This document shows, one piece after another, positions 6,064 to 48,925 of a stretch of 64,000 nucleotides of DNA. The notes under the pieces were generated by a model that had not been told where the DNA came from, searched no databases, and saw only the letters and a program-made list of their open reading frames with translations. Made by a program: the position numbers and the translations under genes. Source of the DNA: Tubiluchus corallicola. Its lineage: Eukaryota; Animalia; Priapulida. The stretch is from positions 434,001 through 498,000 of the forward strand of contig JAQGDQ010000088.1 of assembly GCA_030141605.1 (NCBI GenBank), written 5' to 3'. Numbering within the stretch: the stretch's first letter is position 1; each line of letters opens with the position of its first letter.

Positions 6064-6505
6064 ATGGCTGAAGCTGAGGGTAACAGTAAAGACAAAGTAG
6101 AACTGAAGAAAAAGGTCAGTCTTTTCAATGGTGTCACCATCATAGTTGGTTGCATCATCGGATCCGGAATTTTCCTGAGTCCTGTAGGTGTCTTAAAGCA
6201 GTCACAGTCCATTGGCGTATCACTGATCGTGTGGGCAGTATGTGGTGTTCTGTCCACTCTTGGTGCTCTGTGTTACGCTGAGCTTGGCACAACAATAACT
6301 AGATCAGGAGGAGACTTTGCTTACTTGATGGAATTCTTTGGCCCTCTGCCAGCTTTCTTGTTTTTATGGGTGTCATTGCTGATCATACGACCAACTTGCC
6401 AAGCAGTTGTGGCATTAACATTTGCTAAGTATGCAACGCAGCCATTCTTCACAGGGTGTGAACCTCCGGATAGTGCAGTGAGATTGTTAGCTGCTTGCTG
6501 CCTTT
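6064..6505 (+). CDS. SLC7A5/SLC7A8-like: SLC7 L-type amino acid transporter light chain, coding exon 1 (TM1-TM4 start)
   Basis: ATG at 6064. Motifs [26 protein letters not shown] and IIRP. Heavy-chain-linking Cys132 in [10 protein letters not shown] (LAT1 Cys164 equivalent). Donor T|GTAAGT, phase 1. Confidence 0.96.
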
Positions 6506-9500: not shown

Positions 9501-11064
9501 GAGGATTGAATGTAAAGCTTTTTATGTCTTGGTTGTTAATAATGTAATATGGGTGCAGCAGAATGATTCGACACAGATTACATTATGTGGTCAAGGTTCT
9601 TGGGTCAGTGTGCTGAAAGAAAGTGTGTGGTTGCTTCTTTCCGTTAATACACAGTCAAAAACAAGTAAACAACATTGCATTTAGGGCCGAGTAGAAAGTA
9701 GAAACATGTCGCTGATGTCACTGACCGACTAGTTGAGTGCATGGAAAGGGTGTGCTACGGTTGGACTCTGCGGATGTATCTATAGATGCGTTCCTGCCAG
9801 GCACGTGGTTTATAACTGTTACATACTTGCGTACGTGAACATTTAGCTATCTTCAGTGAAAGCTACAATCTTTATCATGGCTTAAGTGGTAAGCGCTAAG
9901 CGTATTTAAGGAGATCAAAATTCACGAAAACATTGTTATGTGTGTCATAGGCGAACCCATTCAAAATAGTTGAGGTTTTTGTTGAGGCTAATAGCAGACT
10001 TGTAACCCGTTGACATGTTTAGGTGATACTGTTGGGCAGTCCAGCTTTCAGCGACAGGGCTGCTTAATGCAAATGTTTTTGGAGGGACCGGAATCTCAAC
10101 TCACTGACAGGGTAATTCCTCATCGACTAGGAACAGATCAAAAAAGTTTATTTTAGTTGTTTGATAATGGATATGCGGACACCAGAAATGTTTAACGGAA
10201 CCTCAGTATTGGAAATTTGAAATTAAAGATGATTTTTATAGTATCGGTGGTTTTGACTTTTTTCTTCGTTCAAGATTTCCCCACAACCAAGGGACCGAAC
10301 GAGTTCTACAGATTCGTAACCCTATAAATTCAGTACGCCGGTGCTGTGAATGAATGCAATGTTCGTGCTAATCACAATTTCAGTTTTACGGTTTATAAAA
10401 TCTGTCTCAGACAGTCATTTAGGCATAATCAGACTTCTAGTTAAATGGTTGCTAATTACCGACAAATAATGAAATTTGATACCGATGATCGCACTCCTAT
10501 GACGTCAATCTTATGGTTGTGTTTGAATAAAGCTTTCAGTGCTGACACATTTTTCTAAATTTTCGCTGTTTTTAGTCGTTATCTGCATGTTAGAAAAGAA
10601 CGCAGTTATTTATTATTTATAGCAAAATAGGCCTAATTGTTCTACATAAATTTTTCTTAAGCCGTTTTGCCTGACTGAACCTGAACATAAATCTTGATAA
10701 ACAAGCGACATTTGCGCCATATCGTAATAACGTTTGCGTTGCGCTTTCATAAAATAACACGTATTGCCACCTTATAGCATACAAGTGTCTGTTAACTCTA
10801 TTTAATGGCTCTTTGTTTTCTTTGGGTTTTCCTGAAATGTGACACAGTGATACTGGGTAATTATTAATCCCACGGGAAAGTACGGTTGAATGGTTAGTTA
10901 TTAGTCTGTAAAATAAAAATTTTTATAGCCAGACAGTTATATGAGTGTACATCTTGTCTACTAATTAAGTTAATTTTGTTTTGTATTAAAATTGTTACAA
11001 GTGATATATTTTGGGGGAAATTGTTCTTTTAATTTACAAAAATGGCGGTTTGTTTCTTTTGCAG

Positions 11065-11190
11065 GTCTTCTTACGTTTATCAATTGTGTAAGCGTAAAAT
11101 GGGCGATGAGAATACAAGACGTATTTACGTCCAGCAAGCTTCTTGCGTTGGCTATGATCATTATTACTGGTATTGTCTGGATGTGTATGG
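11065..11190 (+). CDS. SLC7A5/SLC7A8-like: SLC7 transporter coding exon 2 (TM4-TM5)
   Basis: Acceptor TTTTGCAG, donor G|GTATGT, 126 nt, phase 1/1. Encodes [35 protein letters not shown]. Confidence 0.95.
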
Positions 11191-11673
11191 GTATGTTCAC
11201 AGTTTACACTCGTTCTTCATATAACTTATATTAAAATTAATGTGATAACTTTTTAAGCAGAATTTTATTAATACGAAACACAGGGGTAGTTTTTCTGTAT
11301 CTGTGATATAAAATGAGGCCAGGATCCCAGGAACTCCCGTTAGTTCCATAAACTTCTTTGGTGATGTTATTGTCCGTGGCCCAGATTCATATACGCATCG
11401 TAAGTTTAGGTAGTTGAGTGCATTGTCTTACGACACCTCTGCACAGTGTTGTAAAGTGTATTCACGCCGCCCCATTTTAATGCACTTAACTGCATCTCGC
11501 TAGTACTCTTAATTCGGTGTTAATGAGGAACCACTTAAGCCCGCTACTTGAATTTCATCAAAAATTTAAAGACGCTGAGCGGGACTAGCTTTAGTAAATC
11601 ACCAGCTGTAACAGCAAATTTATCATTAAACCGAATTCGTAAGTAGCAGCCAAAGGCTCGAGCAATGAGGTGG

Positions 11674-11747
11674 TTTGCTTGCGCCAGTGGACTACTGTTC
11701 GCCAGTACGATTTGCTTGCGCCAGTGGACTACTGTTCGCCAGTACGA
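11674..11747. repeat. Perfect 37-bp tandem duplication
   Basis: TTTGCTTGCGCCAGTGGACTACTGTTCGCCAGTACGA occurs twice, head to tail. Confidence 0.95.
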
Positions 11748-14700
11748 CTGTCTGCTTTTAGTGCGGCTTGTGTCTATTAGATAATTACTAAAATAACACT
11801 TTCAATGACGTTCTGTGCATTATAATGGATCTGAGTTGACAAATTTCTCTACAAGGCAAAGAAAATGGGAAGGGATGGGAAAGAAAGTATCAATCAACTG
11901 CGTTACGTGATTTTTGAAATGGAACGCTATAGCTTGGTATAAATTACTGAAGAAACAAGTTAACAACATATTTGATACGGTTTTAGCAAAAAAGCAATTG
12001 TAATTTGCAACCACTTCGGATCGGGTGAGTTCCTGGATCAGAATGTCATTCCCCACTCAAATTTGTCAATACTATTAGAATAGCCGGGAATCATGTTCCT
12101 CTTCTCACGTTCATACATAGTAGGCAAGAAACAATTTTGATATAAGTCCTAATATGCATATGGTTTCCTTTAGATGTCAATCTGTATATAAGAACATTAT
12201 ATTATAACATCGTGTTGACATCTCCAGCCAACTGCTTATAGAGCAACTTGTGACTTCTTTGATGTTAATTACGTTGGCCATTCTGTATGAGAAGCCACAA
12301 ATATGTAGCATCACCGCTGTCTTGTCAAGTGTGTATGTTGTGGTCTGATCTTTATATTGCTGTAATTTAAGGACCCTTGCGTGCACCATAATAATATTGC
12401 ATGTCGCGCAATAATATTGCATACACCGTAAATGCAGTAAGTCTAGATAGATTGAAGTCCGTTAGGTTATGTGAAATTTTAGTCACGCACTAGCTTCTGT
12501 TTGAGTGTGAATTTCTATGATTGCATTTGTCACGTACATTACCATAATAAATCTCCTGTGTGGGTTGAGGGAAATTGAACGCTCTCTCACTAGTAGATGA
12601 TAACACTGACTATTTTAATCTTGCTAGAGCATTTCGCTAGCTGTAAGTGTTAGCTGGAGAATCATTTTGTCACGTTTGAATTCTAGACGTCCTTTAATTC
12701 AAGGCGTCGTCATTTTGTGAAGAAGCAACGTTAAGACGTAACCGATGATTCTCGTCTGCAGAGATTTGTTTAAAAGTTAACTTGATTTTCAATTTTTTCT
12801 TGCCAATTTGAGTTTCTCAGCGGAGCTAATGAGTACATGTCTGTAGAATCTTGTTGACTTTTTGACACGAATGAGCAGAGAAAATTCTATGTTTTCTTCG
12901 GTGATGCGTTTTCAGGGACGTAGAAATTTGATTTAATGACAGAAATTGATCAAAGTCAAAAATAATTAAAATACATACACGTGTTAGTTTTATCTGTTTT
13001 CATTATTGTTTCAATAGGTGAAGAGTCTGTCGACACATTTAAACACTTCATTGCGAGTTTCAAACAATGTTTTTAGCATGTCCGTTTTAAATTTTGCTGA
13101 TTAAAAAAACGTTTGAATTGTAGCGCTGTCAGCTTTTTCAGTAAACAGGTGACGATATCGCGAATGGTAAACGCTATAAGGGTTCTTAATCAAACATTAA
13201 ATGACCGATTTGTTCTATGGAAATCACAGTGTAAATCAACATTCTGCAGTAATTACGTTACCATTGCAATCATTAAAGGCACGGCAATGACATGTTTAAC
13301 TTTGTTAGGGGTGACAAGGGATGTAGGTCAAACCTGTACAGATAGTTAAAGGTGCAGTCGTTGATGTTATTAGGTAGTAATAGTTTTAGTAGGTGGCGAT
13401 ATAAGTTTTTGTTATAAACACTATATTAATATTTTTACATGCTTATTTGAATTGAAAGCACAGGACATGTAGCATTAGCAAAAAGAAAGTATAGACGTTA
13501 GTTTTTAAGATAAGAATACCCAAGAAAAATTGGTAACGCGGGATGCCTTATGGAGAAATCGAATTCAAATTTTAAACGGCACGCTGTTTTCCACTAATAG
13601 CAGAATCTGGCGAGAAACCCTTGTTGAACAACTCCTACGACAGCGTATAAGAGGAGGGTTGTCTAAGTAACAACTGTTAGTTCATTGAATTTTTTCAGAG
13701 ACCCACTTGCACCAAGCAGACAAACCCCATTTCATAACTGTACTAAAAATTATTTGTAAGAATTTTACTTTCTACACGTGTTTATATTTCTGCTTATTGA
13801 AGTCTCTTATTCGGGTGACACGTTAGTCTTATTTATGGGGATTTGTATAAAAATCTAATATTAACTCTGTGGACCTGACTGAGCTCTGTACAACTCTGCA
13901 TGTTCGCATCGTATAAGTCGTGTCGAGTGGGATGAGAAATGTTCAGGTGAGTAAATCTAGATATGTGTGATTCCTTGTTTATTGCGCCAGCATTATTGAC
14001 ATTGCGTTAATGGTTCAAATCCTAACAGGTGACAAAACAGCTTAGCGATGAGTTCAAATTTCCGCTGCCATTGATCTTGGGTATAATGGAAAGCTACAGG
14101 TGATATGAGTAAAATGGCCACCATTATTCAGTCTCTTCAAATATCCTTAGAGGCTTTTTTGATCTTTTTTTCTGAATGAATTATAAGTAGCTTCCGATTC
14201 ATACTCAGCCCGGGCTAGAGAATCAGCCCACAACACGTAAAGGTACTATACTGCTGTTCTATGGACCAGACTTCATGTGTTCATTATGTGTTCAGACTTC
14301 AAACTGAGACAAGTTGTAACCACTTACACCAGTCTCATGCTGCTGCACATTGCAGTGTGACAAAGCCCGAACTGAGTTCGCCAAAATCACAAATTGCTAA
14401 CGTTGTATGTTCGTTAGCCTGCGCACATCAAAAAGGTACTCAAAAAGGGGGTACCAATAACGGCTACAAAAATCGAGATAATCTAAACCAGTATCAAGAC
14501 TAATCTATTATTTCTGTCGCGTCTGAGTTATCAAAATCTTTGTGCATAGTCATGGTAATACCATGTTTGTTGTGACAAAGTTATAAGTGCATGTAAGTCC
14601 CAAATACTTAATAGGTCAGGGTATAAAACCTGATTTTCGATTAATTAAAAATTAATTGGTTGTCTGCAAAAGACGTTATTCACTAACACGTGTCCTTTTC

Positions 14701-15330
14701 CGATACCAATCCAAACCAATGGCCAAACCAATAACAACACAGCTTTCTTATGACGGTTATTATTAAAGGGCAATGCAAATACAGAATTCTGTGTTGGCAT
14801 TTAATGCACAGCAAAATGTTCCGAACAAATTTTCAAGTTTTAGGCATTACCATTTGGCAGATGTTAATAATAAGATATATTTTTATTATAATGTTGGTAG
14901 CGGATCAGAAATTCATGTGATCGTTTTATTTAACTAATAGTTTTTGGGTCATTCTTGCCAAATTTCTTCTGTGAGGACACAGTTTGTTTACAGTGAGGAA
15001 GACCTACTTTCCACCATAAGCCATCTAATGGGTGTGTTTTGCTGGTTTCTCATTATTTCTGCAGATGGTGAGACGGGTACTGCAAACATTTTGCTAAATG
15101 TCATGCTGGATAGAGGAATATGTGACGTTATCATTGATAGCATTTTAAACTGGTGTACTTGCAGTGCTTTTAATATTTAATGAAGAGTTTATAAATAAAT
15201 TTATCGAGATTCAATGTGCTTTTGTATTGTAGTTGTGTTAATCTTTGGATCTTTTGTAAATGTGGAACACCTAGTTAACACTGAATTTATAATTTATAAT
15301 TATTTGTGTTTTATCAGGTTTTTCTTGCAG

Positions 15331-15481
15331 GACACACAGAGAATTTTGCTGTACCATTTGCACCTATCACAAAGTCCCCCACAGCTGGCATGATAGCTCT
15401 GGCTTTCTATAGTGGCCTTTTCGCATACGGTGGTTGGAACTTTCTCAACTTTGTCACTGAGGAGCTCCAGAATCCAAATAA
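15331..15481 (+). CDS. SLC7A5/SLC7A8-like: SLC7 transporter coding exon 3A (EL3-TM6, FAYGGW variant), mutually exclusive
   Basis: Acceptor TTCTTGCAG, donor AA|GTATGC, 151 nt, phase 1/2. Encodes [51 protein letters not shown]. Confidence 0.93.
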
Positions 15482-15534
15482 GTATGCATCTGTAATTGTG
15501 TAATTTAATTAACAAATTGATTTTTGCTATTCAG

Positions 15535-15685
15535 GAAACACCGAAAATTTTCAACACGCCTTTGAGCCAGTGCAGAAGACGCCATCTGCTGGTATGGTCT
15601 CATTGGCATTCTATAGTGGTTTGTTTGCTTACGCTGGCTGGAACTTCCTGAATTTCGTCACTGAAGAGTTGCAAGAACCTTACAA
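15535..15685 (+). CDS. SLC7A5/SLC7A8-like: SLC7 transporter coding exon 3B (EL3-TM6, FAYAGW variant), mutually exclusive; absent from the ORF track
   Basis: Acceptor GCTATTCAG, donor AA|GTAAAA, 151 nt, phase 1/2, open frame. Encodes [51 protein letters not shown]. Confidence 0.93.
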
Positions 15686-15774
15686 GTAAAAATTAAGTAG
15701 AGAGTTGGGGGCACAAAGTCTCTTTACGTTTCCAAGAAAACTGTTTTCTAATTGCAACAACGTTTACTATACTG

Positions 15775-16220
15775 ACTAATGCAGGACTAATGGTGATTGG
15801 TGTACCTCTTTCATTTTTCTTTTGGCGAAATTAAAGCTTAGTGATCGTTGCTGCTTTTATAAAATTGGGAAATGAGATTCCTGAAAACAGACTATGGTGC
15901 CCTCTATTTCTTGCTAGGAAGAACTTTTTACTAATTTTTAGTGTTTTTGTCGCATGCTTACCTTAGCTATGGGATGTCATGTATGTTGCTTGTACTTGCT
16001 TCTATCTATTCCTATGTTAAGCTAATGCTTCACTAGCTAACAGTAACTTCTAAACCTCTAAAATGTGTTTTACTCTTTACATAAGAAATAGCAATCATTG
16101 CAAATTTGTTGTGCAAACTAATGCATGCATGTACCTTTTTTGGTAATTTTCTAATAAGACTTGTTTGTGGTAACATAGTGCATGCACGTGTGTTAGTCCT
16201 ATTTATATACTTTTACTAAC
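15775..16220 (+). promoter_or_regulatory. Candidate intronic splicing regulatory cluster (STAR/QKI ACTAAY and RBFOX TGCATG)
   Basis: ACTAAY at 15775, 15786, 15930, 16117 and 16215. TGCATG at 16122, 16126 and 16179. GCATG at 15952. All lie within about 540 nt downstream of exon 3B. Confidence 0.55.
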
Positions 16221-16254
16221 GTTGTCCTTCTATTATTGAACAAAAGCTTTTATA

Positions 16255-17002
16255 CAGTAAGCGCCGCTTAATAGACTCATGGTTAGTAGACTCAATCGCT
16301 TAATTAACTCTAAAACGCCTGGTCGATAATTGGCTTAAATAACTCCGCATAATTGATTCGATATTTTTGGTTCACATGCTTCATAGGATACTACCCTTTC
16401 ATGTGACTAACAAGTTAAACATTTAGTCACTTGCTTAATTTTGCTTAATCACTTGCTTAACCCGTTTGCCTTTGAAGCTCTGGCTGTCTTTGACAGAAAC
16501 TTTAATCAATTATAAACAATAAACTTTAAACAATTATAGCAAGCAGGAACTTAGGCGAAACTACAGACGATGCTGTGGTGAAATATGGGCACCACCAAGT
16601 ATTTTACGAGAATTTGTACATCATACAACAGATTTTCAACGTTTTTATCATTATGAGAACTTTGGGAGCCAGCATTTTCATGATAAAATGAAGTATCCGA
16701 CTTTGAAAGAATTTTTGTAATTTTTGCAAATAAACAGACTTGTGTGTTTAGAAAAGTATACTTTTTAATTTATTACTAATTCACTTATATAAATTAATGT
16801 TTTAATTTTTTTTTAAATTTTTAACTGCACAAAAAAATTTAAGCTTTACTTCATCCCTAAAATTTATTAAAAACTCGCAGCGCATAGTATGCTGGTGACT
16901 CGTACTGCTATACCAGTAATACCCATCAGCTAATACGTTCAGTCGGTTAATAGGGTCAAAACACTTCGGTCCCAAAGTGAGTCTGTCAAGCAGCGCATAC
17001 TG
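16255..17002. mobile_element. Tc1/mariner-pogo (Tigger-like) non-autonomous element
   Basis: Imperfect 25-bp TIRs CAGTAAGCGCCGCTTAATAGACTCA and TGAGTCTGTCAAGCAGCGCATACTG, flanked by TA on both sides. Confidence 0.85.
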
Positions 17003-17849
17003 TACTATTAATCCTGTTTACTACGGTATAAGAGTAAATAAAGTATTTTAAAACAGTTTGTTTTCTTTGTCAGTATTTATAAAAATGGTAAATTTATAAA
17101 ATTTTTGAAGTGGAACAGTTTTAAATTTATAATGCAGTTATTCTACTATATTCTTTGAAACTAAAATAAAAACTGCTTTTGTATTTTTAAAAGCCTAGAT
17201 CTGATTATTTTGTATTACTGTTCTGCTTGACGAGTTATAAATTTTTTAAAAATGGCGTTTTCTATACTTTTAAGCCGAGTTTTCGTTCGTAAATGCCCAG
17301 ATTATAACAGTGGCCCTGGAGAACAATAATTATGCCAAACGGCTAAACGTAAATGAAATGAATATCTATGTAGAGTATATACCTTCTTCTAACCTTGCTT
17401 AATAAGGTAAGGTAATATCACTGCATGCCTGGCTTATTGACTAATATAATCAATACTGATGTTTGCTTTCAGAAGTTTTGCCAAGTTTGATAGAGCAGCA
17501 TTTAAATATTTGTAAGTCAGCATGATAAAAGGTTCTCGAATCTCCAGTTGGTTTTCATTGCTTAGACTATGTTTGTTGATGTAACTTTCCTAACAAAATA
17601 GAATACAGCTATGATTTTGCTCGTGCTCTTAAATTTTAACATTTTTGCTTCGTCAAATAAGTTTGCATGATCATAGTCACTAATTTCATAATTTCAAGGC
17701 ACAATATTCTTAGAGAATCATGCAAGTTGAAATTCTCTCTATTCTTCACTTTTGAGTTTTCTAAAACTGGTAAGAGGTTGTTCTTTTCAGTGTCAAGTTT
17801 TGGAATCAAAATTCTTTACTTTGTCACACAACATTAGCATATTTAAGTA

Positions 17850-18480
17850 TGGTATTGATGGTTTTGTTTAACTTCAAGAATGATGTACAAATATTGTACG
17901 ATATGGAAACACTGTTTGAGGACTTGGTAGCCATTACACCAGATTCCCTCGGCCACCTGCCCATGTTTCTTTTGTTTTTGTTGGTTTATAGGGGTGATAA
18001 GGCTTTAGATGTCAATATCTCACTATGTGATATTCTTTGTTTAAGCTGCAAATAGGCAGATGTACCATAGCCTGCAGTGTGTGCTTCCTACGTCAACTGA
18101 AATGTCAGTAACACCAGTTATGTTATAGTATGCTGGTTATGAGTATTGTTTCAACTTCTGTACTAAAGACTTTGCTGCTTTTTCAACTGATGTTGTTCTT
18201 CATGGAAATAAGGAGTTGGGATTTTTTTCTGTTTGCACTATGGACAAAAACAAGCTATGGACAGCTTAAATAGTTCATTTTACATTTGTAAAGATATTCT
18301 CTGCTTGTTGGTTAAATTCAGTTGCTGGTTGCTTCATATTTTATTCTACCTGTAGTACCGACATTTCTCAGTTTTTCACATGAGTTTCTAGGTACAATTT
18401 TTACATATTCATCAGACTTGTAGTTGGTGGCTGTTCTGAAAAATGATTTTGTCATTGTGTGGTTTGAATGTGGTTGAGCA
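17850..18480 (-). mobile_element. Possible highly decayed RTE-like LINE fragment
   Basis: Weak ORF2 C-terminal-like remnants on the minus strand with many stops and frameshifts. Boundaries approximate. Confidence 0.3.
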
Positions 18481-19989
18481 GTGTAAATATTAAGTATTAC
18501 ACTGATGTTTTTTTCTGCTGTATTTTGGGATTTTGGTCAAATGGCATTTGTCGAAATGATGACTGGTAACCCCTTTAAATAAAGAAGCTAGAATTTTAGT
18601 AAACAGCAAAAACTTCAAACTTTGTGAAACTATTGTCGTCGTCGTCATCAACGAGTGCAGATTTCCATAAAGTCTGAGGTCTGGAAACAGGTCGTGAAAA
18701 ATGTTCTAGCAGGTTAGCAAAACACCATCAGTTTACATAATTAGAACTTGTTTTTGTCTTAACCTGTTTTCCAGGCTTCAGCTTTTTGGAAAATTATTGT
18801 ACGTAGTAGATAAAAAAGCTTAAAAGTTAAAAGCTCGTTAATTGTTTTTACATTGATATTAATAAAGCATGTTGAAGAAGTTATACATACGCACTTTAAT
18901 AACTAAAGCCCATTTATGCAATATTTAAAAGTAAAGATAATACCTGCTACTGTAATTACTTAATCTGCTTTGCGGCCTAACAGTGGATTAGAAGGTATGC
19001 TTTTTCGTGAAAATATCTACATATCTTGCATTTCTAATCTTCAAAAAATAGTGCCATCAGTCTCCATATTCAAGTGCATTTTAAAAGTTTACTTAAGATG
19101 TTAACACAGTGCGTTCTCAGATTGTCAAACTATGTTTAAATTGAAAGAATTCAAACATGTTATGGTCATTCATTAGCAGTTACCCAAGTAAGCTATCTTT
19201 ATTTCTTGCAAAGTGCCCATTACTACTGTGTCACACAACGACTTTCATGCATTCGTGTGTGTTGATAATGCACACAAGGGTGTTGCACACGAGGGTGTGT
19301 GTGCACACTAACTGTCATTTTAGTCAATCAATATAGATTGGGAGATACTGTAACATATTCTATGTTTTGGCATGTCAGACTTTTGAAGGTAGTTTCTAGG
19401 ATAATTTTATCCATGAGTTCATTTCTGTTGATAAATTTTTAATTTTGTACTTTTAATGAGATAATTTGAATATTTAAGTATATTAATATTTTAACTATAT
19501 AATACACTGAAATTGCATTATGAATATGAAGGCCTGCTTGTGCAATAAGTTTGATGTAACTTGTTTTTAGTTATACCCACACAATGTTTTACATTAGCAT
19601 GTTGTTTTGGACTTTAATATACCTCATGTCAGTCATGTGATTCATGCAAATATGCACAAAAACCGACCGTGAGTTTACTTTATTCATATTGGGTTCATTA
19701 TATCACCAATTTCTCGCTACAATAAGCTATTTTAAGTGGTTCTTTTAACAACTTTTCATGAAGACTGTATTTCTGCCATATATACATTTTTGGTGCGTTT
19801 AATGAGATAATTAACTTGTTTATCATGTACTGTGATGCTTTTTATCTGTCTATGGTTTTTTTAAACGTTTTGATCAATAATGTTCTAAAATATTCCGTTT
19901 TCCATACAGGCTGAGGAACAAGTGGTAAATGTTGTCAATTTATTTATAAGTTTCACTCAAAATGATGTCATAGCCATATCTCAAACTGC

Positions 19990-20900
19990 CAGAAGCATTG
20001 GAAGCAAAATGTCTTCTTTGCAGCTGCTACCTAGGGACCTGTTCAACAAAACAGGTTATTATTAAAGCTGGTCTAAAAAAATCATGGAGAAAGCTCACTT
20101 TTGGTCCAAATTAAAGCTCCAGAGTTTGTTCAGCCACATTATGAATTCATCAGCATTTTGGTCAGAATAAGACAACAAACCTATAAAATCTGCAGGCTGA
20201 TGTATAGCACACATTCAACAACAAAGCAAGTTGTGTCGATGTGTCAGATACCACTGTCAAAAGAACTAAAAGAAGAATTAGCTATGTTTGTCTATTGGTG
20301 AGATGTAGACTGTCTAAAAGAGTTACTGGCAGGTCAAACTTTATTTGTTTTGTTTGTATCATAAAAACAAATTAAGATACAAAGTTATCATGTAACAGCA
20401 TATAATGATGTGAGGCTTGGGAGTGTTCCAGAAATTTCAGTAGACAGAGAAAAGAAATATTCTTGGTGACCAGTATCAAGAGGCAGCAGAGAGAGTGTGA
20501 ACTATGATCTGTATGGAAAGTCGTTTGACTTTTTTGCAGTAGATGTGTCTCGTGACAAAATCCACTGAACATATTTTATTATAACTTCCAAGAATGACCT
20601 AGAAAAAGATCAGAAAAAATCAACAAAGGTCCAAGTAAATGAGTAGTTCAATAGGCTCTAGCCAATGATGGGGGTTACAAGATGACATTAAAGAGCTGAG
20701 AACAGAAAGAGGATGCAAGCATCAGATACATATGATATAACACAGAATGTGTTAAACAGATTTGGGGACACTTTTACCTTCATCTTAGTAGTGTAAGTTT
20801 TTGTTTTTGTGCTGTTGTCAACCTGGCAAAGGTGCTTGCAAGCATGTTTGAAAGAGAACTTAATGCAGCAGCAAATGATAAGCTGACAGTAAAATGGCAA
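19990..20900 (+). mobile_element. Decayed interspersed repeat copy 1 (probable LINE fragment)
   Basis: Shares colinear blocks with the reverse complement of 21230-22200: GGAGAAAGC, AGCCAYATTATGAATTYATCA, AAAAGAGTTA, AAGATRCAAAGYTATCAT, TGGTGACCAGTATCAA. Confidence 0.65.
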
Positions 20901-21229
20901 AATGATTCAGTTGACTTGTACAAGTCCGTGGCCACATCTGTATAAGAGTGATGATACATCTGTAGATCTAGTCATTCTTTAAATGTTAATGTTCAAAGTA
21001 ATGATATTAATAAATAACTAGATGAATGTGATTTTCATTCACTTTTTCAGTAGTTACTTTGCTATTGGTAACAGCATGCTCATTTTTAAGTGGTTTCTGG
21101 TTACGAGACCAGTGATTGCATTGTATGTGTTAGGATTAGACAAAGCAGGATAGGGCCCACTTCTGTCTAGACATAATAAGGTTTTCAGTCTTTAGTCTTC
21201 ATTCACTAGCTGCTACTGCACTACTGTAA

Positions 21230-22200
21230 GTTTTCTTTCAATCATATTTGCAATTGCATTTGTTAAGCCGTCATCTTGAGGACCAGCACTATTCAAAGTA
21301 GCTGGAGCATACAAACAAGAATCCACACACACAAACAGGGTTCCTAGCAGATTTCTAGAAAGAAGTTTTGTGCTGTAGTCTGTTTACCATCAGTCTTTAG
21401 GTCTTGAGTGGTTCTTCCAATTAATTTTCACGCTCAGCTCTTTAACGTCTTCATTAAAGAGTAGTTAATGAAGTATTAAAGAGTAGTTCCATCACTAACT
21501 ATGCCTCCTCCTTTTTTGATAATTTTTTTCTACCAGCATTACAAACTCCTTCTTTACTTACATAGACTTTGGTGCCTTTCCTGAACTTTGTGCGGTCTTT
21601 CTAGGAAATTCTTGTCCAAAAAGTGTGTAAGAGATTTTTTTGATGAGGCACACAAACCGCAAAAGATATCAAATGTCTGCATTTTGATACTGGTCACCAG
21701 TAAAATATCTTTTCTTTGGCTGTTCTTGTAATTTCTTCTAAATCTTTGAAATATCCTTGATGCCCTCTATTGTATTGTGGTTTCATATGATAGCTTTGCA
21801 TCTTGATTTCTTTTTATCTTGCAAATGAAAACATATAAAGTTATAAGTTTGACTTTGCAATAACTCTTTTAGTCTTTTTATGCTCATTTGTTTTATCACC
21901 ACCATCACAAATGGATGAACATATTCTTAATGTTTCTTTCAATTCATCTGGCACACCATATTCATTTTTGTTTGTTGCCAATTGTGTACTACATCAGAGC
22001 ATATATGCCAGACTTTGTAGGCATATAGGTTGACTCTATTTGTGTTTTTTATTGTATCCAAGCTGGTGATAAATTCATAATATGGCTAAACAGATTCTGT
22101 AACTGGCTCAAAAATGTGCTTTCTCCCAATAGTATTCAGAACAGCTTCACCAATAGTCTGTTTTGGTTTGGCTCTTAGGTGTGGTTGCAAATGTCCCAGG
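21230..22200 (-). mobile_element. Decayed interspersed repeat copy 2, inverted relative to 19990-20900
   Basis: Same shared blocks in reverse complement, e.g. TTGATACTGGTCACCA near 21684 versus TGGTGACCAGTATCAA near 20465. Confidence 0.65.
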
Positions 22201-23527
22201 GACTAAAAGTTCGCGTCCCGATGATGGACTAAGATTCTTATAAATGTATTTAGTATCAAGATAGTTGCAGGGGGAGGGGGGTGCTGCAAAGGGCTACAGA
22301 GCCACATGAAGATTTAAAAAGTTGGACTTCTATAATGCCAATTTTATTAGAATTTTCATCACTTGCATGTATTCCCATTGCTAATACAGTTACTATCCTC
22401 AAACATTGTTTCAATTATTGTTACACACTCCATAACAATAATTAGTAGTTTATATACCCAAGATAATTTTACCTTATCTTAAATACTGTTCCACAAAATT
22501 TCTTAGAACTATACTAAAAAGGAGCACTTTATTTTGTTTGCCTCACAGGGTTGTGTCGCTTTGCTAGGACACAACTTCACAAACAATAATTCTGCAAAAT
22601 ATTCACCCATCTAGGCACTTCTCATGTCTGATGTTGCTTAACTACCGAAGGAATTTCTTTTGAATGCCAATAAGTAATTATGCAGTGAAGTTTTTAAATT
22701 TGAATTGAAATGAATCTGAAATCATTGAATTTTTGCGTGAAATTTATATTCATTTCATGACAACATTTACTTTTTTCCTGAAAAAAGAACATTTTAAAAC
22801 GTTATTCCTCAAACCATTTTTAAAACACAGACAGATAAAAATACAGTGCACGATAAACACATTGATTATCTCATTAAACATGTTAAACAAAAATGTGTCA
22901 GGCAGAAACATCTTCTTCATATCAAATTGTCAAAGTATCCACCTTAAATATCTCTTTTTGATGAGAAATGAATGATATAATGAAGCAGTATGAAAACTGT
23001 GTATCTGGTTCAGTTTTGCTGAATTTGCATAAGGCATATTAATATCCAGTGACATGCGAATCTAAGACATTGTGGGATGTAATTAAACAAATACGATGAA
23101 ATTTTTGCCTCTCATTTAGTTAAAATGTTAATATGTTCATGTATGCAAATCATCTCATTAAATATGCAAACTTAAAAAATGTATCTAGCAGAAGTGATTT
23201 CTTTGGATAAAGAAACCTAGGAACTTAGAAAAGCCTAGAAACCGTTTTCAGAAGTTTGACATCTCAAAATATCAAATATTTTACAGTGTGCGTAATAATA
23301 TAGTATGATACCAGTATAATAAGTTATTGGAATATCATTGATCATGATTTCAGTTTGCATTTGCATCAATGTGATTTATAAATGTGTCACTGCTTTAAAT
23401 AGCTAAAGATTGTTGTGATAATAGCTGGCTTAAAATTTCCTTTTTTTCTTCAGAAATAATCAGTTAGTGTCCCATGAGCTAAAATCAGTGTGCGTTTGAT
23501 CAGTTACTAAATAAAAATGATTTTCAG

Positions 23528-23651
23528 GAATCTTCCTCGTGCTATAGGCATTGCAATGCCATTGGTGACGGTGGTGTATATACTGACCAATGTGGCATAC
23601 TTTTCTGTCATCCCTGCTGATGTATTATTAACATCCGAAGCCACTGGCGTT
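23528..23651 (+). CDS. SLC7A5/SLC7A8-like: SLC7 transporter coding exon 4 (TM7)
   Basis: Acceptor TTTTCAG, donor GTAAGT, 124 nt, phase 2/0. Encodes NLPRAIGIAMPLVTVVYILTNVAYF. Confidence 0.95.
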
Positions 23652-24008
23652 GTAAGTATAAATTTACAGTTTTTTCCTTTTAATGCATTTAATATAATTA
23701 AAGTTCAAAAATAAAATTTCATGCCTTCAAATATAATTTCCTGTACGAGAAACATTTTCTAATTTGCACTAAAACATTTTTTCTCAACTTATTGTTTTAT
23801 ATAGCATTTGTGAAATACTAAGCAGTGGTTTGCTTTTCAAGTGTGTATGAACCTTTGTGTTTGATCACTTTTATCTGTTTAAAAGGTTTAGAAACGGTAT
23901 TGTTGAAATGCCCCTCTGTTTAACTTTATCTTTCTCGGATTCCGACTCCTTCCTAGCAAGAGGCAGTATAGTGAATGAAACAGTGCAGAACAAGTATTAA
24001 ACTTGGTT

Positions 24009-24052
24009 GTCGCCCATCCATTCACTAATCAAGCCTAATGTTGTTGAACTTC
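24009..24052 (-). repeat. Degenerate 5S rRNA-derived fragment (5S pseudogene or SINE3-like head)
   Basis: GTCGCCCATCCATTCACTAATCAAGCCTAATGTTGTTGAACTTC resembles the reverse complement of the 5S internal control region (GTCACCCATCCAAGTACTAACCAGGCCCAACGTTGCTTAACTTC, recalled from memory). The flanks do not complete a 5S gene. Confidence 0.55.
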
Positions 24053-24217
24053 AATTGCTAAATATGCATGGTAACCATTCAAATATTCCTCACTGTTCAA
24101 CTTTAATTTAGAATATATGTTGTTCACTTTGCTTACTTGTCTTTTTGTCCTATGTAATATACTTGCAAGTTGCTATCTTGTACATGTCTCTTAACGATTT
24201 GTTATGTTGTATTTCAG

Positions 24218-24321
24218 TTGTTTGGGAATCGTATGTATGGCGTAATGGCTTGGATTATTCCTGTATTTGTTTCTTTGTCATGCTTTGGAACTGTTAATGG
24301 AATTCTTTTCACGTCAGGAAG
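24218..24321 (+). CDS. SLC7A5/SLC7A8-like: SLC7 transporter coding exon 5 (TM8)
   Basis: Acceptor ATTTCAG, donor AG|GTTCGG, 104 nt, phase 0/2. Encodes [35 protein letters not shown]. Confidence 0.94.
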
Positions 24322-25119
24322 GTTCGGATAATTTTCTCTTTTTTTATGTCCAATTTGTGTGCAATGATTTTGGAAATTATGTAGATTTATGCAGATTTAA
24401 GATATATCTTGTTCTGCATTTTCATTAGTTGCAGTGTATCGTCACCTAATTTATTCATATGAAATGTACTGTAATCTCGAATGTAGTAGCTAAGCTTGAC
24501 CGCTATTGATTTTACTGTCACTAATTATGAATGTCAATATTTGGATGTAAAGCATCGCAAGGGCACCGACATACATATCTAGATCTACATATACATATAC
24601 ATCTAGATCTAAGCAAATTTTACCTACAAATTGATATTACTCCAATATGACCGGACATTAAAATTCCACTTGCCAATTGTCAATATTTGACAGACTAACT
24701 GAATATAAATGATTTAGTAGTTTAAGTCCCATTGCTATGTTTAAATGTCACATAGTAATAAGACAAACTAGTAGTATACTTAAAATACTTAGTGCAAAAG
24801 TCACTCCTACTATCATTTTTTTATTATTCATATTTAAAAAGTGAAAGAAGTAATTACCTTTTTGTTTTTGTGCAGCTGCTGTTTTTATTTAAAAAATTAA
24901 AACAACTTAATTTCAATAAATTTCTGCCTATTACATTTCATAATTTCATATTTTGTAAAGATCTTTGAAATAAGCAGGTGTATATGGTTGTATATGTGTT
25001 ATATGTACTTTTGAATGCAATTATTGTGTTCTTTTGTAGTAAGAACTATTGTTGTTTTTATTCATTTTTGATATAAAATTTCCTAATTCTATTTCTTGAG
25101 TTTTTCTATAATTGTTTAG

Positions 25120-25216
25120 GTTGTTTTTTGTTGGAGGACAAGAAGGACATTTACCAGTCATTGTATCTATGATCCATGTTAAGAAGCATACTCCTTCACC
25201 TGCTCTATTGTTCACT
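25120..25216 (+). CDS. SLC7A5/SLC7A8-like: SLC7 transporter coding exon 6
   Basis: Acceptor TGTTTAG, donor GTAAGT, 97 nt, phase 2/0. Encodes [32 protein letters not shown]. Confidence 0.95.
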
Positions 25217-26368: not shown

Positions 26369-26518
26369 TGTGCAACGTCTCTGCTTATCCTCTGTGTCAG
26401 CGATATTTTTGCACTTATCAGCTATTTCAGTTTTGGCATGTGGTTGTGGGTCGGAATATCGGTCACTGGCATGATCATCTATAGATTTACACGCCCCAAT
26501 TGGCAGAGGCCAATTAAG
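26369..26518 (+). CDS. SLC7A5/SLC7A8-like: SLC7 transporter coding exon 7 (TM9-TM10)
   Basis: Acceptor ATTGCAG, donor AAG|GTGAGA, 150 nt, phase 0/0. Encodes CATSLLILCVSDIFALISYFSFGMWLWVGISVTGMIIYRFTRPNWQRPIK. Confidence 0.95.
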
Positions 26519-29088: not shown

Positions 29089-29266
29089 TTTAACTTGGTA
29101 ATTCCCATCATTTTTGTGATTTGTTCTTTAATCATTGTCATCCTGTCGTTCATCCAAGACCCATTTCCCTGTTTATGGGGTGTTTTCATCCATGTCATTG
29201 GAATACCAGTATATTTCGTATTCATTTGGTGGCAGAAGAAACCTGCAAGTTGTAACAGAACTTTAG
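29089..29266 (+). CDS. SLC7A5/SLC7A8-like: SLC7 transporter coding exon 8 (TM11-TM12)
   Basis: Acceptor TTTTCAG, donor AG|GTATGT, 178 nt, phase 0/1. Encodes FNLVIPIIFVICSLIIVILSF...IGIPVYFVFIWWQKKP. Confidence 0.95.
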
Positions 29267-31124: not shown

Positions 31125-31261
31125 ATAAGTTTACAGTGGCTTTGCAGAAGCTACTGTATGTGGTTGTACAAGAAACTGCCATACACAAAGATCATGACGA
31201 GAAAGAGCAGTCGTATCAGATGATACCAAATCAACAAAATGAATCATCAGCCAAAGCCTAA
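31125..31261 (+). CDS. SLC7A5/SLC7A8-like: SLC7 transporter last coding exon
   Basis: Acceptor CTTTTTAG, phase 1. Encodes DKFTVALQKLLYVVVQE...SSAKA then TAA at 31259-31261. The spliced CDS with one exon 3 totals 1509 nt, i.e. 502 aa. Confidence 0.93.
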
Positions 31262-35534: not shown

Positions 35535-37217
35535 CTACGACAAAGTGGAACTCGAAGATTCGTCTGAGGCTTGACCAGACGATACTGACGAAGAAGAATC
35601 ATATCTTCTCTTCTTATTTACTGGTCCAGAAACAGACGATGAAGAACTACTACTTTCAGAAGAGGAACTCTTTCTGCGACTTTCTTTACTACGTAATTTC
35701 TTTGCAGAATGGATTAATTTTTGTACTTTTTCAGGTGATTTACGATGACGCTTATGCTGTGGTGAATGTAATTGATTTGCTTTCAGCTGTATAGATTCAT
35801 TCGTCCTTAGTGAATGCCGTTCTGGTTCATTATTCGATGATGATGGTGAACATTTATATTTTCCCTTTCTAGCATAATGTTGCCTATCCTCTGCATCAGA
35901 TACCTTTTGTCTTTCCTTCTCGTTTTTCTTTCTAAAAGGTGAAAGAGGCTTAGAATGTGACAGCCTAGACTTTTCACGTTTAGCATTTGACACTCTTGCT
36001 GAATTACCCTTTGTTAAGCATTTTCTTGAAGAGGGCAACATTGAACTACTGGAAGATCTATGTTGCTTGTGCTTATGCACTTGTTTTCTTTTACGTTCAC
36101 TACTACCAGAAGATGCAGATGTCCTTGACTTGCTAGATGAGCCACGCCGGCTATGTCTTTCTTTTCTTTTACGTTCTGTTGATGGCGAAGATGACCTACG
36201 TTCATTAGAAGAGCTTCGACGTCTTCTTGCTTCTGGTCTTTTGTACTGTCTTGAAGGGGAGGATGATTTAGAATGGTCAGATGAGGTATGTCGTCTGTGG
36301 GATTCTTTTCTTTGCCTTGATTCGCCTCTGTTATGCCTTTTCTGTTTTTGTATATCAGGCGACCATGACAAACTTTCTTTCCCTAATTTTTGCTTTCTAT
36401 GCGAGGAGATCTGTGCACTATTTGGCATGTCAGCAAAACGCTTACCTAATGACGATGATTCAGCAAATCTTCCCTTAGAGCGATTAGTTCTATTAACATC
36501 ATCACTGCACGAACGTGATCTACTTTTTCTTGCCAAATATCTTTTATCTTTCTTCTGTTTTTTCATAGATGGCTCTTTGCTTGATGGTTTTCTGTGTTCT
36601 CCTAAAGGTGGTAACTCTTTTTGTCTATCTTTTTCTTTTTTCTTTTTCTTTTTAGATAATTTATTGGGAGAAGGTGATCGACTCGGACTGTGAATTAGCT
36701 GATATTTCTTTTCGTTTTCTGCTTTTTCTGCTGCTGCTTCACGTTCTTTATGTTTTGGATCAAAACTACTACCTTCCACAAAATATTTGCTAATTCCAAA
36801 AGCTTCTCTAAGCCGTGCATTCTTTTCTTGGTTTGCTTCGGCTAGTTGATGAGTTTCTGTTGGGGCAACACGCTTGTGATCTGTCTTCTCGCTGCTTATT
36901 TCTTTTAGAACTTCTTCCTGCTCTGCAAGCATTTCTCTAAATGCAGCTACTTTCATCTCAATTTCTTCTGGCGAGTATCCCTGCTCTTCCATCAGATCTT
37001 GAAGTTCCACAACACGCAGTTCAACGCGGCGCTTTTTTTCATGATCTAATATGGCGGGGTTGGGTTGCTTTGCTAGCATAGAATCCAATTTCTTCAGTTC
37101 CTCTTCACTTTTGTAATCAACTCTTTCCTTACGGTTTCTTACAGCTGATAGATTTCGTTGCACATATCCACTCGTACCACTGCCTCTTGGTGTCGTCAAT
37201 CCAATACCATTATACAT
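35535..37217 (-). CDS. SRRM2: SRRM2/Cwc21-like serine/arginine repetitive matrix splicing factor, 560 aa, single coding exon
   Basis: Diagnostic N-terminus MYNGIGLTTPRGSGTSGYVQRNL, cwf21 domain (ILDHEKKRRVELRVVELQDLMEEQGY), ETHQLAE...NARLREAFGI, and an R/S/K-rich tail. Acceptor TTTTTTACAG lies 18 nt upstream of the ATG (exon starts 37235). Confidence 0.93.
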   Translation of the reverse strand: MYNGIGLTTPRGSGTSGYVQRNLSAVRNRKERVDYKSEEELKKLDSMLAKQPNPAILDHEKKRRVELRVVELQDLMEEQGYSPEEIEMKVAAFREMLAEQEEVLKEISSEKTDHKRVAPTETHQLAEANQEKNARLREAFGISKYFVEGSSFDPKHKEREAAAEKAENEKKYQLIHSPSRSPSPNKLSKKKKKKEKDRQKELPPLGEHRKPSSKEPSMKKQKKDKRYLARKSRSRSCSDDVNRTNRSKGRFAESSSLGKRFADMPNSAQISSHRKQKLGKESLSWSPDIQKQKRHNRGESRQRKESHRRHTSSDHSKSSSPSRQYKRPEARRRRSSSNERRSSSPSTERKRKERHSRRGSSSKSRTSASSGSSERKRKQVHKHKQHRSSSSSMLPSSRKCLTKGNSARVSNAKREKSRLSHSKPLSPFRKKNEKERQKVSDAEDRQHYARKGKYKCSPSSSNNEPERHSLRTNESIQLKANQLHSPQHKRHRKSPEKVQKLIHSAKKLRSKESRRKSSSSESSSSSSSVSGPVNKKRRYDSSSSVSSGQASDESSSSTLS

Positions 37218-37799
37218 GACTTTTTGTTAGACTTACTGTAAAAAAATATAAAAATAATAATAAAAATGTAAATAAAATACTGACATACCAAAATGAAATA
37301 GCTTAAATTTGGTTCAAAAAAGACTGAAAACAAGTGACAAAAAATATAGATAATCTATTAAATTTCATGCAGGATTGAATTTTGTACAATCCATCTTTGT
37401 GTGACATTAAATCCTTTGCCTACTAAATGTTTCTATAAAAATTATTACGTTATATACTTGTTACACCATGCACTGAAATGACACTACCCGTAGAGCAATG
37501 AGGTTCGAAATCTTTCTGCTTAGATAAAAACATTTTATATTTGCAAATTACTCTGATACATTTGATCATTCTTCTGCACCAGAGTTGTTACGCAACAAGT
37601 AATAACATTGCCGAATGAATAAATACCTCCCTCATTACTGTATAAGAGGTACCTTTCAATTATTTTTGTGATATGATAATGAGTGGCTTCCAACCAATTG
37701 CTGACTATTGCCAGTACTTGAATTCTCAGTCAGTGGCCAAATAGAGACAAATGGTCACTGAGAAGTGAAAGCTTAATAGACGAGTGTAAATTAAAGTTG

Positions 37800-40799: not shown

Positions 40800-43700
40800 A
40801 GTAGTTTTGTACAGCAATAATTGGCTATCCTCGGTGTGTAAACATGTTGACGTTATTGCTAGTCATAAAAAATTCTTGTAAAAGGTCTCAAGGATATCCG
40901 TAGTTATGATGTTTGATTTATTGTTTTGTCAATCACTTAAATTGAGTGAAGATACAAGTAGTGAATGAGGTGATGCTCCATTATCTGTAGATTTTGACGG
41001 TGAGGTATCCATGAATAGAAGTAACATAATTTTAGAAGGTGCTGAACTGTTATTAACAAAGCAGTAAGTGAAAAAGTGTACTTAAATAGTTTGGTAGTAT
41101 TTGATGAATTGACACTCGGGGGGTGGGGGGTGAATATTTAATTCAAAATATGCAAAAATAGCTACACAGAAGTAGAAATGATTGAGTGCTGTGACTGTTG
41201 TTGATTTTAAATACAGATGTGAAAGAAAGAAAGGTGAACTTGACAAAGCTCATGGGAATTACCAAAAGCTGGTAGATAGATATACAAATAAAACCAAAGA
41301 AAGTTATGATGGACAACATGAAGAACTACTAAAAGTGCAAAAAGAACTAACCGAGTTATAAGAGAAGTATAAAAGTAAGATTGAAGAAGTTTGTGATTGG
41401 AAGTAAACTATTGCTAATCTAAACTCTTATCTGGGACCAGTGCAAAATGTTCAGTTAAGTGATGAAAAAGTGGAAAATCAAACAAAAACTACTTATAGGA
41501 ATAGTGTTGCAAGTAATAATGACAGCCTAAATAGGCATAATGAAGGTAATCGCGGAGAAGATAAATATCAGTTGGTCAGAATAAGAGAAACGAAGTTATG
41601 TTGGAATTTTAAAAGAAGTGTGTATTGTAAGTACGAAGAAAAGTGTAATAGTGTAAATTTAGACATTACTTGCTAGAAGAAGAAGAAAGTTACTTTGAGC
41701 AAAGCAATAGAAATCAAGTAAAAAGTGGTTGGCATGACAAGTTTAACGACAGAAAGCCACTATGCTGGAATTTTGATAGAGGTACTGACCGTGCATACGG
41801 AAATAGATGTAAGTTTACACATGAATATACAGAGTATGAACTTTCAGTAACAAATAATAGAAGAAAAAGTCTACCAATACATACAGACGAAAAGAGTAGA
41901 AATAGATCTGCTTGGGATACACAGGAGAACAGTAGCAATAAATAATATGCACAAATGGCAATGCCTGAGGAGGCAAATGACTGCACTGGGTGTCCAGTGA
42001 GTGAATTAAATGAAGTTTCTAGAAAAGTGGACTTTTTACTGCAGAGAATCAATATCATAGAAGGAACACATCAAAACAAAGAAGCGACATGTTATACAGG
42101 TGAGTACCCAATAGATGCTGCGAAACAAAATGGGAATTATCTGCTAAGTCAAGGTTATTTAGTAAAAGGATAAAAAAGGGGAATCAGAAAAGATCTATAA
42201 GCGTAAAAATAAATACAAAAATTTTAATGTGTTTTATTCAAACTGTAGGTGTCTGAAATCAAAGCATGAATCTTCAATGGAAATAATAGAACAAGTTAAA
42301 CCAGCAGCAATTATGTTAGTTGAAACACATTTAAGTTAAAAGGAGCAAATTGATATTCTAGGACATTATGTATTTTATAATAATCGAACCAAAAGTAAAA
42401 GGGGGGGGGTTTTAGTCGCTATTAAAAAGGAGTTTAAAATAGTCACAATAAATGTGTCTTCTGAGACAGATTATGGGGAAACTTTGTGGATATTAATAAA
42501 CAATAATAGAATTACAATTAGATTGGGTTTAATATATGGACCTTGAGATTCATGAACTGATTGAAAAGTTATTTTAATATGTTTATCTTAGTCATCTGAG
42601 TACATCAAAGTTATCTTAGTATAAATATGTTTTAAATATGGATACTAAGACAAAAAAAAAACAAATAAGAACAGCAAAGTTAAATGGTGAAAAATTATTA
42701 ATAGTAGGGGATGTCAATACTAAGATGGATAACATCATAAAAGGTAACAAAGAGATAACTTTTGCTGGAAGTAAATTAAAGGAATAATTAGAAATAGAAA
42801 AATTAACATTGATTGATAATCATGAGAAAATAAATGGTTTATGGACTCGAATACAAGGTGATCAGAAATCTGTAATTGACTACGTAGTAGTTTTACAAAA
42901 TGGCATAAATGTAATTAACAAGGCATTAATTGATGAAGAGACAAAATACAAAGTATTTATACAGATCACAATTCAATAATAATAAATATGAATTGGGTGA
43001 AATTATATAAAGATCAAGAAAAACAAAAGGAGGCAATAATTAGATTAACCAATTGTAGTTTAAAAAAATTCACGAAGTAATGGAAAAAATGAAGTTGTCT
43101 CAAATGTGACAAAAACAGGGATGTACAAAGTCTCTATACAGAATGGCAACGAAATATTACAAATGTTACCGATCAGTGCTTTAAAAACACGAAAATTCAG
43201 AAAACACAGTTCTTAACTAAAACATAAAAACTTTAAGAAAACAGAAAAGAGCGATAAGAAAAGATATGATGTTAGAAAAAGTGTGAAGTGATGAATATTA
43301 AATCTTGAAAATATGTGAATAAAGAATTGGTGAAATGATTCATGAAAATGATCAATAAAGGTAATTTAATAGGATAAATAGCATTATATCTCACGAAAAA
43401 AAAGACGGTGGAATTAATACAAATGCCTTTTGGGAATTTAGGAGGAGAATTAAAATAAAAAAATTAGAAGACATAGTATCTATGAAAAATGATACCTATG
43501 CAATTTGCGAGAAACCGAAAGAAATACTGGATATTTTCTCGAATTACTATAAAAAGCTATTGAGGCCACATGAAGCTCAAACTAAGAAAAGAAAAGAGAT
43601 TGAGGAACAATAAACAAACAAATTTAAGAATTAGAAAATTATAGTAGAGGAAAAAGTGGAAGCTTCATAACGGAACAAGAAATCAAATACAGGAATTAAA

Positions 43701-45320
43701 ACGAAAAAACTCGAAAGATAGACAATGACTGGCGAAATGAAATGTTAATTGAAGGTGGAGAAGCTCTGATAAAAAGTCTACACTTAATGTGTAATGATAT
43801 GCAGCAAACTCACCAATTTCTGACTGATGCATGGAGGCTTATGACCATAAAGTCAATGTATAAAGGAAGCAGACCTAAGAATGAGAGGAAAAGTACAAGA
43901 CGGATATTTTTAACAAGTCTTATTAGCAAACTCTAAGAAAAAGCATTGCTCAGAAACATAAAGGCACAATTTATCAGAACTAAGTAATTTACAGTGTGGT
44001 GTAAATTATTTACATGGCTGATCATTTGTTTGTCATTAGAGCTCTACTGGATTATAACAGGTATCTGCATAACGATGTATATCTAGTTTAGGAAGACATT
44101 GAAAATGTTTTGATAAATTTTGGCTTACAGATTGCTTAAACGAACCGCTGATTATAAAAAAATGAGTTTAATATTTAATGAACTTAACAAAGAGGCATGA
44201 TAACTACTCCATTAGGCTGCACAAATGCAATAATTAGAGGTGAATCAGTCAGACAGGGAACGCATTTTGGTCCAATTTTTTGTAGTATATTAATGAACAA
44301 AGTTATAAATATTGCTACATATCCAAATACTATGCTTGGTCCAAATTTAGAAATTGGAACACTTCTATATGTTGACGACTTTTTGGGTATTTGATCTAGT
44401 GAAACAATAAAAAATGTAGTTGAGAATTTTAGAGAAATTGAGGAGTAAAAACGGGTAAAATTTAACATTCAAATAACTAAGTGCATGAAAACAAACATGA
44501 CCAAAAAAAGGAAACGACATTTGAAATAAAACAATCTGTTAAACATGTTGAAATTAGCAAGGCAGAAACATACAAGTATTGTTGTGACTGGATTACAATT
44601 AAAAACAGATATAATGTCATGTTTAACAAAAGAAAAGATAGAATGAAAGTAATGATAATGTACATAAATAATATTGGGTCAGAATCAAATACAGGCTAAA
44701 AATCAACAGAAGCTAGATTAATTGTCTACGAGACAATGGTGATACCTGCATTGTTATACAACAGTTAAACCTGGAGAAACCTAACAAATACAGAGTAGAA
44801 ATTCTTAAAAAGTATCCAGTGTAAGGCTCTAACAAAATTGTTGTGTCAGAAAAAAACAACCCCATAGTGGGGGGCATTTTAGCTCAAGTGTAAACTGCTG
44901 GCCAATTGAAAACAGAGTTGAGTACAAAAAGTTAATGTTTTATCATCATTAACTTTAATGAAAACTGATGATGATACAATGGAACAAAAAAACAAGGTTG
45001 TATGAACAATATTGGTATGATGAGGTTGTAAAAAATAGCTAATTATTATGAAATAAACAGTAATGATATGGAACAAGTAAATAAGAACGAGAAGTCTGAA
45101 TGGAAAAATATGGTTAAAAATAAAGTATCAAAAAGGGTAGCAAAGGAGTTCAGAGCAAACCGCAATAAAATGACCAAATTGAGATTTCTCAAACATAATG
45201 AATAATGAATTTAACAAGCAAAATAATATCTCTGAATTAGGTGTGAATAAGGTGAGTAACTATGTGAAAACTAAATTAAATGTGTTGGAATTGAAGTGTA
45301 ACTTTAAAATGTGTCCTAAT
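40800..45320 (+). mobile_element. Near full-length but dead non-LTR retrotransposon (ORF1 with CCCH fingers; ORF2 APE plus RT)
   Basis: ORF1 has a coiled-coil-like stretch plus LCWNFKRSVYCKYEEKC and LCWNFDRGTDRAYGNRCKFTH. APE motifs: VFYSNCR, MLVETHL, GGGVLVAIK, IVGDVN, KSVIDYV, TDHNSI. RT motifs: VRQGTHFGP, LLYVDDFL. Numerous stops and frameshifts. Confidence 0.9.

Positions 45321-48199: not shown

Positions 48200-48925
<726 letters not shown>

Follow-up and report, generated by a model that had tools for sequence, protein, structure and literature searches.

The DNA analysed here, a stretch of 64,000 nucleotides from the priapulid Tubiluchus corallicola (hereafter, the window), carries on its plus strand a gene for an SLC7/LAT light-chain transporter with 10 coding exons and GT-AG introns. 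The first exon (6064..6505) holds the start codon and encodes TM1-TM3 together with Cys132, which aligns with the cysteine that follows TM3 in extracellular loop 2 (EL2) of LAT1 and which we take to form the disulfide bond with the SLC3 heavy chain. The second (11065..11190), encoding TM4-TM5, is the upstream neighbor of two homologous exons, A (15331..15481) and B (15535..15685), each of which encodes EL3 and TM6. Downstream of the pair lie the exons for TM7 (23528..23651) and TM8 (24218..24321), a further coding exon (25120..25216), those for TM9-TM10 (26369..26518) and TM11-TM12 (29089..29266), and the last coding exon (31125..31260), its end being approximate at the stop codon. The junctions flanking the pair, placed at 11190 and 23528 in an initial annotation of the sequence, were reproduced by this gene model. 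With either exon A or exon B the protein has 502 residues, and the residue of interest is number 223 in both. A contig of run X2 (14 million letters, taken to be RNA by guess) connects the exon that ends at 24321 with the one that starts at 25120, matching the gene model; on the other side of the same contig is a diverged copy of sequence resembling the exon at 29089. Over positions 10900-24500, exon 2, exon B, and the 23528 exon had no contig in this run, and a 169-nt contig that matches 15424-15466 does so with five differences in 43 letters, possibly as a paralogue or a diverged relative.

Elsewhere in the window, a single open reading frame at 51140-51814 on the plus strand encodes a PX-domain and TPR protein, presumably SNX20/21-like from this architecture, and a long frame at 35538-37226 on the minus strand encodes an SRRM2-like protein with a cwf21 domain and a Ser/Arg/Lys-rich tail. 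Fragmented reverse-transcriptase-like frames at approximately 41200-45300 (plus strand; weak RVT_1 match, E 0.0015) are probably a decayed LINE. A compound microsatellite of AAT, ATAAT, and AATAC units occupies 48495-48928, and two frames that look coding but match no Pfam family lie at 62653-62937 (minus) and 63316-63588 (plus).

The closest relative of the transporter among the matches listed was XP_014666876.1 of Priapulus caudatus, with which it is colinear and shares 356 of 502 residues (71%); over exon 1, this protein is 83% identical, compared with no more than 71% for any of the other 119 matches listed. It is the only priapulid orthologue found, a single protein of the A type being on record for the species, and was sister to the window protein with a support of 100 in a quick tree of 47 rows, some labels of which were assigned by the analyst. 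A search of LAT1 with this orthologue by phmmer gave an E of 2e-165, and LAT1 was likewise the best Foldseek match (TM 0.84/0.94) of its AlphaFold2 model (pLDDT 89; 88-row alignment). The orthologue has the 12 helices of the APC/LeuT fold, and the colinear window protein retains both the GSG motif of LAT TM1 (IIGSGIF at 31) and the F/W-x-x-x-G-W motif of the unwound TM6 (FAY(G/A)GW at 220). Its TM10 reads GMWLWV where LAT1 has FNWLCV, and hence the distal pocket is not identical to that of LAT1. In the quick tree, the priapulid pair was placed in one clade with insect JhI-21-like proteins (support 96); the available part of one report describes JhI-21 as participating in leucine transport (PMC9823048). 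All records seen of these insect LATs have the single Gly-type motif FAFGGW, and no TM6 isoform pair occurred among the records compared.

Exons A and B are each 151 nt long and begin and end in identical phase at AG and GT borders, as had been proposed; a spacer intron of 53 nt (15482..15534) separates them. Counting the split codons, 37 of 51 residues are identical, again in agreement with the initial annotation; of the whole codons, 35 of 49 specify the same residue, and 100 of 151 nucleotides are shared. This likeness is beyond chance (tblastn of A against B, E 2e-22), and with the next match at E 0.55 there is no third copy of the exon in the window, nor was any of the eight other coding exons duplicated there (tblastn). 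The isoforms would differ at 14 residues, 13 of them besides residue 223: 11 fall within residues 191-212 (loop 3 with the beginning of TM6a) and two after TM6b. Within a central core of 24 codons, 14 codons differ synonymously and only one non-synonymously, GGT in exon A and GCT in exon B, which gives FAYGGW with Gly223 in the former and FAYAGW with Ala223 in the latter. The anticipated frameshift was also found: joint inclusion would lead to a stop after 249 residues and skipping of both exons to one after 195. These stops lie upstream of the last junction by 776 and 636 nt, respectively, and a transcript that kept the spacer would likewise contain a premature stop.

The claim that this is an old duplication held under purifying selection was upheld by the codon comparison, in which synonymous change is saturated (pS 0.93) while pN is 0.19 (Fisher p 4e-15); for the 24-codon core, pN is 0.05 (Fisher p 3e-11). 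All TM6 columns that are invariant among 87 homologues are retained in both A and B. The tandem exon pair is thus real, old, and constrained. The two copies share a two-residue insertion in the loop, a gap in 81 of the 87 homologues, and Met210, found in none of them; both features are also present in XP_014666876.1, and the duplication therefore likely arose within the priapulid lineage, as judged from these shared characters. Across the exon, Priapulus matches A at 37 of 49 residues and B at 31 of 49, with A and B matching at 35 of 49. An exon tree with residue 223 masked returned (B,(A,Priapulus)) at 99/86, a hint that the pair may be older than the split from P. caudatus, but the AU test did not reject the grouping of A with B (p 0.37); if the pair is older, an unannotated Ala-type exon is predicted in P. 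caudatus.

In the model of the Priapulus orthologue, the exon spans the end of TM5, extracellular loop 3, TM6a (217-230), an unwound stretch (231-235), and TM6b (236-243). The variable residue falls in the unwound stretch between TM6a and TM6b, where it had been placed at the outset, and it aligns with the first Gly of FAYGGW in LAT1 (Gly255) and LAT2. The accompanying statement that this site varies among paralogues was borne out for Gly in LAT1 and LAT2, Ala in human xCT, and Asp in fish b0,+AT-like proteins; for Asc1, Ser246 was found to lie in the same stretch, and the spacing between Phe243 and Trp248 suggests that it is the equivalent of site 223. The y+LATs carry Ser at this site. Among the 87 homologues, Gly (37) and Ala (39) are the two common states. 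The 11 rows nearest the priapulid pair in the quick tree comprise nine with Gly and two with Ala, and a lophotrochozoan clade of LAT-like proteins has Ala in 14 of 15 rows; this alternation between lineages indicates that the change may be well tolerated. An xCT (SLC7A11)-like reading of Ala223 was considered and rejected: exon B shares the Ala of human xCT, which reads YAYAGWFYLN, and is LAT-like in the rest of the motif, and Ala is usual in the lophotrochozoan LAT-like proteins and so is no sign of xCT-like function. In xCT, a basic residue of TM10 serves the acidic side chain of the substrate; the corresponding TM10 here, SYFSFGMWLWV, is without Arg.

Given these observations, one gene, through the likely splicing of A or B, may make two LAT-type transporters with pockets that are predicted to differ, a reading to which we give an even chance. 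The pocket with Gly223 (exon A) would admit bulky side chains such as those of Trp and Tyr, while Ala223 (exon B) would shift uptake toward Ala and Val, with Leu and Phe kept. This prediction is carried over from human LAT1, where, according to the part of the report available, the G255A replacement lowered uptake of Trp and Tyr, raised that of Ala and Val, and had no severe effect on Leu and Phe (10.1101/577551). By this analogy the shift would amount to a tuning of selectivity within one transporter class. For Asc1, the accessible text names Ser246, in the unwound TM6 stretch, as a selectivity determinant, and reports that S246A and S246G both reduce uptake of small substrates (PMC10998858); the loss in both mutants makes the effect context-dependent. 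A measurable shift in selectivity that follows residue 223 is given about one chance in two.

The most durable alternative, which is possible but on balance unlikely, is that both exons are used, mutually exclusively, and the exchange of Gly for Ala matters little, the copies being either nearly equivalent or distinguished by loop 3 through the outer gate, contact with the heavy chain, trafficking, or kinetics. Consistent with it are the concentration of 11 of the 14 differences in residues 191-212, with another two after TM6b, the near-equal frequency of Gly and Ala among homologues and their alternation by lineage, and the LAT1 mutant itself, which in the part of the source available largely spared Leu and Phe uptake (10.1101/577551). 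Against it, the sole change in the core strikes precisely the residue for which an effect was measured in LAT1. Moreover, no part of the exon varies more among homologues than loop 3, and differences between A and B there are thus to be expected by drift.

The predicted transporters depend on mutually exclusive splicing of A and B, which is considered rather likely. Frameshift followed by decay would remove transcripts that contain both exons or neither, and a branch point too close to the donor of A probably blocks joining of A to B sterically. The spacer, at 53 nt, compares with 566-7842 nt for the eight other introns of the gene, and adenosines in what we assume to be a branch-point motif occur at nt 27, 31, and 39 of it, i.e., 27-39 nt from the donor of A. 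Some invertebrates splice introns of about 53 nt, which makes the steric block probable and not certain. For human exons, a donor-to-branch-point distance of 50 nt has been taken as the steric threshold, in the available part of the source (10.1101/133215); the distances here fall below it, but a value drawn from human introns may not fit the priapulid minimum. When all AG dinucleotides of the gene are ranked, the acceptors of A and B stand at 0.967 and 0.951, inside the span of the seven constitutive ones (0.555-0.998). The donor of A (GTATGC) has G at +5, as do seven of seven constitutive donors, and that of B (GTAAAA) does not; exon A is probably the default form because the donor of B is the weaker. 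Competing RNA pairing of the docking-site type was sought in the spacer and both flanks, and the best duplexes were within the range of 12 shuffles each. A second AG, at 15318, lies 13 nt upstream of the acceptor of A, out of frame and with a comparable pyrimidine score. Downstream of exon B, the intron contains a high-copy repeat at about 15900-17250, with an X1 contig depth above 1000 compared with approximately 5-10 nearby, and a large degenerate fold-back formed by 19347-20486 and 21677-23287. The latter consists of two nested arm pairs of approximately 700 and 500 columns (62% identity; E 4e-49 and 2e-29) and ends 240 nt before the next acceptor; as both of its arms lie downstream of B, it alone would not select between A and B.

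If one exon (B, or conversely A) was formerly used and is now silent or present in traces, a single protein would be made; this is improbable. Such a loss would accord with the weaker donor of B and with the A type alone being on record for P. caudatus, and a brief period of neutrality would leave no mark. In 20,000 simulated runs of neutral decay, exon B was as intact as observed in 1.7% at 0.1 changes per site, in 19% at 0.05, and in 62% at 0.02; long-term constraint is thereby demonstrated, and B may still have been lost very recently. On the other side, B has neither stop nor indel, its acceptor is normal, and its third-position GC is 0.51 compared with 0.33-0.36 in the flanking introns. 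Its branch in the exon tree has zero length, which makes B the more conservative of the two copies.

There is very little chance that the pair is mainly regulatory, with joint inclusion or skipping directing the transcript to nonsense-mediated decay: premature stops do result from either non-exclusive outcome and from a retained spacer, and the out-of-frame AG 13 nt upstream of the acceptor of A scores equally well, but a poison exon needs no conservation of TM6 protein through saturated synonymous change. That two haplotypes or two paralogues were merged into an assembly artefact is scarcely credible, for although there is a single assembly, of which run X1 (which covers introns and behaves as DNA) is possibly the source, so that its contigs check the assembly only, 51 of the 151 nt distinguish A from B, the gene has no other doubled exon in the window, and one X1 contig spans 15199-15604, through A and the spacer to the first 70 nt of B, with no difference.

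Searches for other exon pairs at TM6 were made at several levels, each of them shallow. A swap of the TM6 core was found in none of 25 hand-picked pairs of LAT isoforms. Comparison of 297 proteins gave 300 pairs with an identity of 95% or more immediately downstream of the exon, and 63 of these were less than 88% identical within it (four being artefacts of one truncated row); none differs at the 223 site, and none is a named pair from the same species. Five of the 150 listed from 619 representatives had two matched stretches, none a single-exon tandem, and no second TM6 copy occurred at the best 80 of 98 metagenome loci, a weak sample in which 30 loci were intron-split and the contigs were mostly of 1-6 kb. 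The largely open literature that was searched held nothing relevant on a LAT exon switch or a priapulid SLC7, and the term LAT2 G246S was absent among the literature matches listed. The view in the initial annotation that no mutually exclusive exon had been described at this position in SLC7 genes stood for LAT genes, within the literature searched and the annotated isoforms compared.

At other positions, exon-level duplication does recur in LAT genes. Isoforms X2 and X1 of Dreissena polymorpha (P0012/P0219) both have 491 residues with nine differences, all within 165-201; they are probably the products of a mutually exclusive exon-2 pair, just upstream of the TM6 exon. A cockroach and two spiders (P0044/P0251, P0014/P0015, P0040/P0047) have isoforms with different homologous first exons encoding TM1-TM3, which supply the remaining half of the binding site. 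Among teleosts, b0,+AT-like models (P0125, P0257, P0329, P0473, P0475, P0477) contain tandem N-terminal halves (TM1-TM6) that precede a single C-terminal half or lack one, and the site equivalent to Gly255 is Asp, Gly, or Ala. Either the models are fused, or one gene may have alternative 5' halves by which this pocket residue is exchanged.

A broader proposal is tentative and, as a whole, rather doubtful: the pair would be a priapulid-wide switch that predates the split from P. caudatus, sets a transporter for bulky against one for small substrates by tissue, constitutes the first natural isoform pair at the Gly255 site, and forms part of a repeated diversification of APC TM6 through duplication of exons or half genes. 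What lifts the case above the routine is mainly that the natural swap coincides with a mutant of published effect, Gly255 being a measured determinant of size in LAT1. A natural pair with this difference, the protein being otherwise identical, would test the retuning of selectivity by one methyl group in a single background under selection, and would be an instance of splicing that alters the pocket wall of a LAT, a task left to paralogues in vertebrates. Its reach is restricted, as only a modest shift is predicted and a single little-studied phylum seems to be concerned.

Precedents for the principle exist in SLC7A2 and SLC12A1, and what is new, on the best reading, is the location of the pair at the TM6 pocket exon of a LAT gene. 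The peptide exchanged in SLC7A2 belongs to the region of TM8-TM9, and in SLC12A1 (NKCC2) the swapped exon covers TM2 and changes ion affinity. Like the window gene, SLC7A2 is an SLC7 member with tandem homologous exons that are mutually exclusive and alter transport; unlike it, SLC7A2 belongs to the CAT and not the LAT branch, and its splicing changes arginine affinity and capacity, not the TM6 pocket wall. As described in the part of one report available, exons 7 and 8 give CAT-2B and CAT-2A, respectively, which differ in affinity and capacity (PMC12714141), and within the available portion of a catalogue of human tandem exon substitutions all five of five "SLC7A" entries are SLC7A2 (PMC8373072 supplement). 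The initial annotation had contrasted splicing in this gene with the separate paralogues of vertebrates, a contrast that was overstated because vertebrate SLC7A2 is also spliced, to CAT-2A and CAT-2B. SLC12A1 is, like the window gene, a transporter of the APC fold with tandem exons guarded by a frameshift; the corresponding part of the catalogue lists its exons 4a, 4b, and 4c as mutually exclusive, their joining causing a frameshift (PMC8373072). It differs in having three such exons and in being an ion cotransporter. Human LAT1 (SLC7A5), for its part, has one TM6 exon form in the available portion of that catalogue (PMC8373072), and its TM10 pocket residues differ from those of the window protein. 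It shares with that protein the same fold and, with exon A, the motif FAYGGW, so that exon B is the natural equivalent of G255A in a transporter that is a target in drug delivery and cancer.
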